Shown: positions 1,748 through 16,650, numbered from the stretch's first letter. The stretch is 24,408 bases of DNA from Candidatus Heimdallarchaeota archaeon (GCA_030614005.1 JAUWKS010000049.1:1-24408), one strand, 5' to 3'. Made by a program: numbers and translations. The notes: generated by a model from the sequence alone, not told the origin.

Positions 1748-1772
1748 ATTTAGCTCTTTTAAAGCAAAATTT
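1748..1772 (+). promoter_or_regulatory. Shared promoter box copy 1 (ATTTAGCTCTTTTAAAGCAAAATTT) upstream of the surface-protein operon
   Basis: Intergenic; 23/25 identical to 16626-16650; contains TATA-like TTTAAA; GAGGT RBS follows at 1808-1812. Confidence 0.65.
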
Positions 1773-1821
1773 TACCAGAGATAAATGAGAATGAACTAGA
1801 ATCATCAGAGGTTGTAGAAAA

Positions 1822-4800
1822 ATGAAAAAGAAAGCACTAATCTTAATTGCAATTTACATTCTAACAATTGCAGTATCTATGAACAATACAATTGAGAATT
1901 CTTTTCCAGAAGAACATCAAATTGTTTTTGATAAAGAAGATTTGAAAAATGGATTTATTAGTTTTGAAGTTCAACCAGACGCACAAAGTAATCCAATTAG
2001 TGATGAGATGTCTCCTTTAGATCTGACTTCTCCATCGTATACAAGCCTAACTCTCTCAGAGAATGATCCAATAGCAGAAGGAACAAATGTATCCTTACAA
2101 AGCATTACGACATCCAGTGGCTACGGTGTTTCCTCTGGTGAAGTTGATTTTCTAGATTTTGAACTCTACAAAGTAGAAAATGATACTACCTCTGACATAA
2201 TCTACTCAAATAAAATCGCAGTAAAAATTAACATTCCAGAAGCAATAACAATATTTGGTTTTGTTATTGATGCAGCACCTACAATTAGAGAAGATGTTAA
2301 TTTCTCTATAAGAAACAGTCTTTCAGGTGCTGATTTAAAAACAGGTCTTATTTCTGAAAGTATTGGAGACAGTGCCCAAACTGATCAACAATTATTACAC
2401 GTTCCGTTCAGCTATTCAGGATCAAGTGGTTCCTTGTCATTGACCGCTACTACTGATTATTATTTTATACTAGAACCAACGATTTCAACCTCATCATCAT
2501 TTTTTGAAATTACACAATCTGATGATACTCCTGATAATTTGGGAGTGTTTACTTGGACAGGAAGTGCGTATGAAGAGATTAATTCAGATATCCATTTCTA
2601 TCTCATAACACAACAAAATCAGCTTGCAGTAAATGAACCTGTGAACGGAAGTGGTGAAGCATCAACAACTTGGGTACCTATTGCAATAGGTGATCACTCA
2701 ATAGTTGCTTGGTATGGAGGATCAATATTCTATAAAGAGAGTTTTGGGTCGATCTATAGAAGTGTCGTTCCATCAATGGAGACATTCTACGTTACAGTAA
2801 ATCCAGCATTTGCAGCCTATCAAGATGAAGTAAATATTCAAGCATCTGTTTTAACTGAATCTTTCACTCCTGCTCTTGGAACAACAGTTCAATTTTCGTA
2901 TTCGGAAGATGGATTTTCATGGATACCAATTGGAATTAGTATTTGTAATGATTTAGGGATAGCAACAATTGATATTCAACTTGATTTACAAACAGATAAT
3001 TATTCATTGATGGCCAAAGTAAATGAGGTTTCATACGATGAAAGCTATTTGCTAATTTCTCCTGAAACAATTGTTTGGACAAATATTGGACTAGAAGGTT
3101 CGTTTAGAAATAATTTTGGATTTCCATCAGATGTAGTTTTAACAACAACTCTTCTAGTAGAAGATGATGATGGAATTATTGTGCCAAATATGGATTTTGA
3201 CTTTTGGTATTTAATTGATGGGAACTTTGAACGAATACCACATGCTTTCACAACAAATGAAAGCGGCATGTTTGATGTAGTTTACTCGATAGAGGATCTT
3301 TCAGTTGGTACATATTATAATACTCATTTCTTCTGCCCAGCAGATTATGAAGTTAACTACGAGGGAGATTCAGAATTTGGTGACTCCATCGTTTACAAGG
3401 GTAATTTGAACGTTGAAATCAATGATTATAGCATTGACTGGTATGACGATGTAGAGTTCAATGCTCGAGTAATATCTATTGGCGAAGGTATGAGCGATAT
3501 TTATGTTGAATTTGCTTACTATGCAAATAGTCAATGGAATACTATTGGAACAGAGCTAACAAATAGCTCAGGATATGCAACCTATACTTGGGATCAAGTT
3601 GATCTCTTAATGGGTATTTATCCATTGAGAGCAAGAACCTTAGAAACTTCATTATTCAACTCAAATGAATCTGTGAGTTACTTTTCCGTTGGGAAAAATG
3701 ATATTGTACTTTTCATAATGAATGATGGCGAACCAAGAGGGAATGGTGAAGAAATCGATGTTGAATTCACAACCTCTATGAATCTCGTATTCTACGTTGA
3801 ATTTGCAGATGGCTCACCCGCACCCAATCTTCTAATAGAAGTGAAAGGTCGATTATTAGATGAAGTATTTTATCAGACGCTAGGATACATCACAACAAAT
3901 GGTTCAGGATACGCTACTCTGACGAGTTACGAAGAACTGGATTTGGTTGGCTATCAATATGCATGTATTGCCGAAATTGCAGAAAATGGCCAACACAGTG
4001 GCTCGCAACTCTACTTCAAAATAAACCTCCTAAAATGCACTCCGGTGATAATCTTTGCTGATCATTTAGGAGCGAAAGGTACCTATGTTGAATTTACTGC
4101 AGAATTGTTTAATTCAGAAAACTTTCCCCTAGAAAATGTTCATGTACAATTTATAATTAATGGAGTAATTGTTGAAGGAACAACAGATCACAATGGATAT
4201 GTTAGAGTTTTATATGCCCCAATAAGTGCTACTGGACAGCATATTATCTATTGCCGTAGTGTAGAAGATGACTTCTTTAACACAATTCAAGTCGAAGCGG
4301 TATTAACGCTCAACAAAGGAACACCGTATCTTTCTGTACTCGAAGCTCATGGAAAAATAGATGATTTCATTACTATTAAACTACTAGCGATTGATTCGCT
4401 AAGTCGTCCGATAGAAGGCTTAGATATTCGATTAACATTTGATAGTTGGAGTCAAATTTTAACTACTGATTCATTTGGATTGATTGATTATACTTTCCTC
4501 GCTGGTGATATTGAAGTTGGAAGTTATTTGCTCGTTCTTTCTTTTGAAGGTAATGATAATTGGGTGGATATAACCGAAACTGGTACATTAATTATCACTG
4601 CATCTAATTCAACTATTGAATTACAGCAAGAAGCAATCATCAAATCTTTTGGTGAAGAATTGTTTTTGGAAGCTATTCTTCTATCAGAATTTGGAGATCC
4701 AATAAATGGCCGTATTGTCGAGATTGTTTTGTTTTTTGACAATGGCACATATCTTGTCTTGGGACAAAGTACAACAGACATTAATGGTTATGTACAATTT

Positions 4801-16601: not shown

Positions 16602-16609
16602 AATATAAA
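16602..16609 (-). promoter_or_regulatory. TATA box (TTTATATT) for the PD-(D/E)xK gene, likely near-leaderless
   Basis: About 31 nt above the TTG at 16570; no RBS visible. Confidence 0.4.
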
Positions 16610-16625
16610 ATTACAAATATGCTCT

Positions 16626-16650
16626 ATTTAGCTCTTTTAAAAGAAAATTT
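16626..16650 (+). promoter_or_regulatory. Shared promoter box copy 4 (ATTTAGCTCTTTTAAAAGAAAATTT)
   Basis: First 16 bp identical to 1748-1763; upstream of 16713. Confidence 0.65.

Follow-up and report, generated by a model that had tools for sequence, protein, structure and literature searches.

A regulon-specific promoter box in the BRE position at an XPD–Hef–membrane protein cluster of a Heimdallarchaeial family

The TFB-recognition element (BRE) of archaeal promoters is a purine-rich sequence of the cRnaAnt type that adjoins the TATA box on its 5' side, at about -33 to -38, and sets the direction of the promoter. At the EarA-dependent fla (archaellum) promoter of Methanococcus maripaludis, which Ding et al. 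are said to have described in 2016/2017, TACATA hexamers reportedly adjoin a weak BRE. TFB3-dependent, UV-inducible promoters reportedly operate in the Sulfolobales at the genes for the ups pili and the ced DNA importer, as Feng et al. and Schult et al. are said to have found in 2018. The aCcr1-box, also of archaea, is located between the TATA box and the start site. In Sulfolobus, the BRE of TFB2 promoters resembles that of TFB1 promoters, the difference lying in spacing (bioRxiv 10.64898/2026.09.06.749720). Our literature search turned up neither a cis-regulatory motif nor a regulon described for Asgard archaea, and did not find the word TTTAGCT for archaeal promoters. Here we analyze a promoter box with this word in a stretch of 24,408 nucleotides from Candidatus Heimdallarchaeota archaeon (GCA_030614005.1 JAUWKS010000049.1:1-24408; hereafter the window), where it heads four transcription units that encode membrane and surface proteins, a paralog of the helicase-nuclease Hef, and a 1036-aa protein.

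Position and geometry of the box

The pattern TTTAGCTNYTTWAA has four matches in the window compared to 0.05 expected, and four or more matches were reached in none of 100 dinucleotide shuffles. All four copies lie where the original prediction had placed them (Table 1), and direct reading confirmed its statement that copies 1 and 4 are identical at 23 of 25 positions with an exact core of 16 nt. As had also been claimed, each copy is intergenic and faces the downstream gene, with the start codon on the same strand 49–85 nt further on; copies 2 and 3 are arranged back to back between the hef paralog and the 1036-aa gene. One base separates TTTAGCT from a TATA-like octamer (CTTTTAAA, CTTAAATA, CTTAAAAA or TTTTAAAA), and at all copies the gap from TTAGCT to a YTTWWAWW octamer is 1 nt, rarely 2. 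This one-base gap bears out the prediction that TTTAGCT occupies the BRE slot: the box lies directly 5' of the TATA box and is directional, as a BRE would be, its position being judged from sequence. The box is asymmetric and strictly oriented, which is to be expected of an element working with the directional TBP/TFB complex. Dyad symmetry (TTAGCT ... AGCTAA) was looked for around the box, but none was conserved, nor was there a repeat.

A fifth copy was recovered from a neighboring contig. The assembly (G000) comprises 3.62 Mb in 126 contigs, with 33.5% G+C and a completeness of approximately 90%, and DNA of this locus occurs in cold-seep and marine-sediment metagenomes. The end of contig C1 is the same as window positions 1–127, an exact overlap of 127 nt (the assembly k-mer), indicating that C1 runs into the window; the join places the 5' end and promoter of the XPD gene on C1, where the fifth copy is found. 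The same 127-nt overlap connects the end of C34 with the start of C73 and restores the promoter of an epimerase operon.

Conservation, rarity and gene set

The box is retained at orthologous promoters. When the intergenic region of the hef paralog and the 1036-aa gene was aligned for eight genomes, invariance was limited to each box with its TATA element, the Shine-Dalgarno sequences and the starts, and the DNA between the two boxes could not be aligned. Copy 2 reads AAATTTAGCTG(Y)TT(W)AATACA unchanged in eight genomes of the genus, its flanks having diverged, and the sister genus (G011) reads GTTAGCTGCTTATATA. At copy 3, ATTTAGCT and the TATA element are kept in eight genomes, followed by a conserved TGAGG Shine-Dalgarno sequence and a TTG or GTG start. 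Copy 4 is kept as TTAGCTCTTTTAAAAGAAAA in G010, G006, G008, G007, three more metagenome-assembled genomes (MAGs) of the genus and the sister genus G011, and reads TTAGCTACTTAAATAG in G005; the XPD box is kept in G010, G009, G005, G008 and G006. The closest relative, G010, has copy 1 unchanged, G009 and G005 read TTTAGAC, and G006 and G008 read TTTAGAG; the same drift after TTTAG was observed at a GT4 gene and an alpha/beta-hydrolase-like gene. Because copy 1 reads TTTAGAC or TTTAGAG in the more distant relatives, TTTAG is the fixed core of the element, with the next two bases preferred and not obligatory. Footprints in which box and TATA are fixed and their neighbors have diverged were found at the hef paralog, the 1036-aa gene, the 275-aa gene, XPD, the operon of a GT2 glycosyltransferase and an FG-GAP propeller protein, a GT87-like gene and an NDP-sugar epimerase operon. 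The box is therefore conserved while its flanks diverge, apart from the drift to TTTAGAC or TTTAGAG and from the sites at a Yip1 gene and a Sir2 gene elsewhere in the genome.

The box is also rare. Across the 3.62 Mb there are 17 exact matches to the pattern. Roughly half of them lie in intergenic DNA, which makes up 13% of the genome, and roughly half in long open frames. In a genome scan with a position weight matrix (PWM) built from conserved sites, the top 16 matches were all intergenic, and matches under approximately 19 bits were mostly coding noise. At a cut-off of 19.8 bits or more there were 14 intergenic matches compared to 0.18 expected from dinucleotide shuffles of intergenic DNA, a test that is partly circular, five of the sites counted having served to train the matrix. 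Relaxing the pattern gave 22 intergenic sites, of which 20 were oriented to a gene start, where the background fraction is 0.59 (p = 0.001). A comparison of all hexamers showed enrichment immediately before TATA-like octamers for just one that contains G or C, TTAGCT, which precedes such an octamer in 15 of 238 upstream occurrences, compared to 1–2% for hexamers made up of A and T only.

Ordinary promoters of this genome carry a different signal. A home-made expectation-maximization search for a general promoter motif converged on low-complexity runs of T or A and was replaced by a count of words on the sense versus the antisense strand, in which GAAAG, AAGA, CGAAA and GAAAC were the generic words enriched before TATA octamers. 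Purine-rich, BRE-like words are present at the tRNA, TFB, thermosome and PadR promoters, and neither TFB gene promoter bears the box. The claim that the thermosome, esterase and PadR promoters are free of the box proved correct, and they have purine-rich words (GTAAGA, GGAAAG) ahead of TATA instead. A BRE proper would have a purine-rich consensus common to the bulk of promoters; TTAGCT forms a separate and rare class. The word is short and conserved, its place in the promoter is fixed and its gene set is limited, as is typical of a regulon box. A stretch AAAG[A/T]AAA after the TATA box, the downstream half of the PWM, was considered as part of the box and rejected, being a general feature of 66 promoters.

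The box is confined to one family. Matches to TTAGCTNYTTWWAAAG numbered 54, compared to 3 for the control, in 12 genomes of family f1, and 15 compared to 24 for the control, which is control level, in 34 genomes of five sister families (f2–f6). The original prediction had named a generic promoter, preceding a large and functionally random fraction of genes, as the alternative that would overturn it; the box is instead family-confined and carried by only some 15–25 of about 2,400 promoters. We conclude that, as far as promoter sequences can tell, the box marks a regulon, of roughly 15–25 promoters, and is not a generic promoter element.

Six genes, operons or gene families outside the window are headed by a conserved or partly conserved box (Table 1). 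The members share a theme of cell surface and glycosylation, with XPD, Hef and the RadB-like ATPase as the exceptions. The giant-protein paralogs L074, L075, L076 and L077 share a longer conserved block upstream of the box, and at L074 and L077 there is, further upstream, a G+C-rich stretch (GTGCTCGYATCGACGCTACTCATCGCTTACAGCGATTC...) resembling a structured RNA or the end of an element. The Yip1 gene (C9:89598) and the Sir2 gene (C114:22085) were dropped as members, their exact sites being unconserved in the closest relative. A TTTAGTA variant at a RadA-like gene (C1:35743) was considered as a link to repair and rejected, since relatives read TTTTGTA or TTTGGTA. A gene for a fused HTH_3 (XRE) and IrrE-like M78 peptidase protein (C42:734-1897 in G000) lies 316 nt 3' of a TTAGCA variant of the box (C42:418-445), too distant for membership.

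Activator, repressor or basal factor

We propose that the element is a regulon-specific promoter box with the consensus (A)TTTAGCT, in which TTTAG is invariant and followed mostly by CT, sometimes by AC, TC or AG. Placed one base upstream of TATA, it takes the slot that the purine-rich BRE holds in ordinary promoters. Its reader would be a sequence-specific regulator that is restricted to this Heimdallarchaeial family and touches TBP/TFB directly. We favor activation because the box promoters have no BRE of their own: the regulator would substitute for the absent BRE contact and recruit the basal factors. As an outcome, some 15–25 promoters would be switched on together, these being the five of the cluster (XPD, the Ig-protein operon, Hef, the 1036-aa gene and the 275-aa gene) and those of glycosyltransferase, sugar-nucleotide and giant surface-protein genes. 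That the box is the site of such a family-specific regulator, acting in the BRE slot as the likely activator of these promoters, is the explanation we prefer, although we hold it tentatively and would not yet call it probable.

Several observations weigh against this proposal. The two bases after TTTAG vary among orthologs (TTTAGAC, TTTAGAG, TTTAGTC), which is looser than many transcription-factor sites. Because the exact sites at the Yip1 gene on C9 and the Sir2 gene on C114 are unconserved even in the closest relative, membership of the regulon is fuzzy at its edges. Searches with Pfam and by protein features recognized no DNA-binding regulator encoded among the cluster genes or the other box-headed genes, and no reader protein was identified. 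The TATA assignment is a prediction and co-regulation is putative. Overlap with the BRE slot is a classic position of archaeal repressors, so the position of the box would suit a repressor as well and does not by itself give the sign of regulation.

The box could instead serve a family-specific repressor as its operator: bound across the junction of BRE and TATA, the protein would keep TFB/TBP off until released by a signal. This is a serious rival to activation that we nevertheless consider unlikely. The box overlaps the BRE slot and abuts TATA, where many archaeal repressors are known to bind, and the copy with the best conservation, flanked by two divergent genes, could act on both of them. 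In their TATA octamers and downstream A(G/C)WAA the box promoters also follow the general type of the 66 other promoters, so that they could work unaided. Against a repressor, the box has neither the dyad symmetry nor the repeat of most repressor operators, and its promoters have no purine-rich BRE, so that after derepression the normal TFB contact would still be absent. The exact BRE geometry and strict orientation would equally suit an alternative BRE read directly by a TFB paralog. Relatives in the genus have two full-length TFBs, a canonical and nearly invariant TFB-A (311 aa) and a TFB-B with a divergent helix-turn-helix and a C-terminal tail, whose reading helix (TTPVTLRNRFKEL) differs from that of TFB-A (VTEVTVRNRYKEL) and which would be the candidate (the TFB locus is at C63:12924-13970 in G000 and at L050–L058 and L119–L126 in relatives). 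An earlier argument of ours, that a single TFB in the genome excludes an alternative TFB, was wrong for this reason; TFB-A is missing from this approximately 90%-complete assembly. TFB paralogs with sub-regulons are known, for example TFB2 of Sulfolobus, but in that well-studied case the BREs of TFB2 and TFB1 promoters look alike and are set apart mainly by spacing, not by a sharply different hexamer (bioRxiv 10.64898/2026.09.06.749720). Both paralogs are class-wide; the TFB-B reading helix TTPVTLRNRF is identical in f1–f6 and the C-terminal tail VKRGAAATPVYVRDPYKF is kept in all six families, whereas the box rises above control in f1 only, and neither TFB gene bears it. Because helix and tail are unchanged where the box is not enriched, we do not favor an alternative TFB and regard it as quite improbable. 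Of the claim that the box is a regulon signature for an alternative TFB or an activator, the regulon signature therefore stands and the alternative TFB is not supported. Small open reading frames (ORFs) of 78–94 aa, whose TFIIB-type zinc ribbon scores at the Pfam cut-off or slightly below it, were noted at C81:29989-30084 in G000, with counterparts in G010, G009, G005 and G011; they could encode mini-TFB-like proteins.

The drift of the bases after TTTAG and the shortness of the element are also what would be seen if the box were a passive core-promoter variant with no dedicated factor, in which TTTAG(CT) tunes TBP/TFB affinity or DNA bending and so sets a low or high constitutive level. However, such a variant would not readily account for family-specific enrichment where the basal factors are identical class-wide, for the genus-wide retention of GCT, under strong purifying conservation, at the hef, XPD and 275-aa promoters, or for the coherent gene set, and we rate it marginally below the TFB paralog. 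Three of the sites do belong to the paralogous giant-protein family with its longer common upstream block, as would follow if the copies were alike through duplication of promoters along with their genes, or by chance, with no shared regulation. The genes behind the main copies are unrelated, however, and similarity ends at box and TATA; chance would give only 0.05 pattern matches per window, and 0.18 matches per genome at the PWM cut-off. The match statistics and the hef/1036-aa alignment largely refute this explanation, which we consider very improbable.

The box offers a concrete, testable cis-regulatory motif for Asgard archaea, with a bait of 7–8 bp for pull-down of the reader and a defined gene set for co-expression checks in metatranscriptomes or enrichment cultures. 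It would show that a sub-regulon can be carved out at the BRE position with no change of TFB, in a lineage with eukaryote-like basal factors, and it adds independent evidence that the family-specific XPD/Hef/membrane cluster may be one functional unit, regulated with genes for cell-envelope glycoproteins. A more far-reaching possibility, which we put forward as speculation and think improbable, is an inducible programme in which a membrane-anchored XPD–Hef–RadB-like DNA-processing machine is co-expressed with new surface glycoproteins and glycosylation enzymes, as the Asgard equivalent of a response for the exchange or uptake of DNA, with a novel factor replacing the TFB–BRE contact.

Genes of the cluster and comparison with known systems

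Table 1. Copies of the box, genes of the cluster, and box-headed genes outside it. Positions are those of the window unless a contig (C) is named.
Feature	Position	Strand	Sequence and remarks
Box copy 1	1749–1772 (pattern match 1749-1762; TTTAGCT 1749-1755)	+	TTTAGCT + C + TTTTAAAG; promoter of the six-gene operon 1822-10389
Box copy 2	12849–12873 (pattern match 12872-12859; TTTAGCT 12872-12866)	-	TTTAGCT + G + CTTAAATA; promoter of the hef paralog
Box copy 3	12912–12935 (pattern match 12912-12925; TTTAGCT 12912-12918)	+	TTTAGCT + A + CTTAAAAA; promoter of the 1036-aa gene
Box copy 4	16627–16650 (pattern match 16627-16640; TTTAGCT 16627-16633)	+	TTTAGCT + C + TTTTAAAA; promoter of the 275-aa membrane protein gene
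Box copy 5	C1:62387	+	TTTAGCTCTTTTAAAAGAAAA; XPD promoter, 70-124 nt upstream of the XPD start
XPD/Rad3-type helicase gene	2–1729	+	Pfam Helicase_C_2, DEAD_2
Transcription unit 1, six-gene operon	1822–10389	+	1720-aa Ig-repeat surface protein, 404-aa and 259-aa membrane proteins, Yip1-like membrane protein, RadB/KaiC-like ATPase; from Pfam and translations
Transcription unit 2, Hef paralog	10398–12806	-	SF2 helicase, ERCC4 nuclease, HhH; from Pfam
Transcription unit 3, 1036-aa protein	12962–16072	+	No Pfam family
162-aa gene	16082–16570	-	Transcribed away from copy 4; own conserved TATA ATATAAAA (+ strand letters) at ~16605-16612, ~14 bp from the box
Transcription unit 4, 275-aa multi-pass membrane protein	16713–17540	+	
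GT2 and FG-GAP propeller operon	Outside window		Conserved box
GT87-like membrane glycosyltransferase and zf-AN1 gene pair	Outside window		Conserved box
NDP-sugar epimerase and LPG_synthase_TM operon	Outside window		Conserved box
Giant-protein family (surface-protein genes)	Upstream sites at G000 C48:2043, C8:4380, C63:37458		No Pfam family; conserved box
Sugar-phosphate nucleotidyltransferase gene	Outside window		Partly conserved box
GT4 gene	Outside window		Partly conserved box

The cluster is syntenic throughout the genus, in the order XPD, Ig operon, Hef, 1036-aa, 162-aa, 275-aa and 276-aa genes and then thermosome, and the genes behind the main copies of the box are mutually unrelated in sequence. 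Together with this synteny, the box supports the original prediction that it ties the membrane genes to hef, and the fifth copy ties in XPD as well. Within unit 1, consecutive ORFs range from an 8-nt overlap to a 39-nt gap, and the box is absent from the gap between the Ig-protein and 404-aa genes, the sole internal gap long enough to score. The XPD gene of the window is the only XPD-like gene in the assembly. All relatives found of the 1036-aa gene are in MAGs of Heimdallarchaeota (Heimdall group), and orthologs of the window's Hef paralog were found in family f1 only; a second, canonical Hef at C20 is class-wide and has 36–38% identity to the paralog.

Some further features of the locus were noted. 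The leader of the hef paralog (12806-12835, - strand) has an 11-nt direct repeat, GAGGAAGTAAT, present twice on the hef strand at 12806-12816 and 12825-12835, and the repeat is arranged around a palindrome, CCTCTCGAGAGG (12813-12824); one Shine-Dalgarno copy could pair with an anti-Shine-Dalgarno-like CCTC. Several relatives have the word CTCGAG between the two hef/1036-aa boxes in place of this arrangement. An Rfam scan of the window found no known RNA family. For the 162-aa protein (16082-16570, - strand), a feature search gave leads only, of the PD-(D/E)XK type (MmcB-like, Mrr_cat), with EVE in place of the nuclease E-x-K; for the 276-aa protein (17565-18395, - strand) it gave OB-fold and HD leads, and a paralog in G005 (L101) is headed by a box. 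A Rad51/RadA-family gene of 456 aa (C1:35785-37155 in G000; C21:148944-150293 in G010) precedes the cluster by approximately 26 kb, several relatives having both on one contig, and G010 has a second RadA-like gene, of 376 aa, at another location. ARAGORN found a tRNA-Pyl (CUA) at C71:90626-90718 in G000 and 17 tRNAs in total across the assembly; the program missed many tRNA genes, probably because these are split or contain introns.

Like the archaeal BRE, the box stands immediately 5' of TATA, is oriented and occurs once per promoter. It differs in a sequence unrelated to the generic BRE of this genome (GAAAG/AAGA/CGAAA) and in its restriction to a small gene set and one family, TFBs being class-wide. 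The original prediction had likened the box to the UV-responsive, TFB3-dependent promoters of Sulfolobus. The Sulfolobales UV motif is a different word that lies upstream of the BRE, and TFB3 is a truncated TFB that reads no DNA. Both systems place envelope or surface genes and DNA-processing genes (here XPD, the Hef paralog and the RadB-like ATPase) behind a common promoter signal, and the comparison rests only on this mixed gene content. The analogy to a UV response is not supported by the gene content, as the rest of the conserved set codes for glycosyltransferases, sugar-nucleotide enzymes and giant surface proteins and not for repair, the promoter of the canonical Hef at C20 has no box, and the RadA-like gene has no conserved one. 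As to a TFB3-like paralog, the genus has two full-length TFBs per genome, and the only other candidates seen are the 78–94-aa zinc-ribbon ORFs near or below the Pfam cut-off. Most of the other members are glycosylation or surface genes.

The TFB2 regulon and the aCcr1-box resemble the present case in that the core promoter defines sub-regulons, through either a TFB paralog or a short box to which a small repressor binds; the aCcr1-box is a different motif from TTTAGCT (bioRxiv 10.64898/2026.09.06.749720). The EarA-dependent fla promoter offers the likeness of a short asymmetric hexamer near BRE/TATA, of promoters with no good BRE, of cell-surface genes, and of a dedicated factor that recruits the basal machinery, the last being only proposed here. 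The two differ in that TTTAGCT fills the BRE slot itself, in that some 15–25 promoters are concerned rather than one operon, in that no EarA-like reader was identified, and in the Asgard lineage. By this comparison, the closest analogues of the box are regulon boxes beside weak BREs, of the EarA/fla type, and after them the sub-regulons of TFB paralogs.

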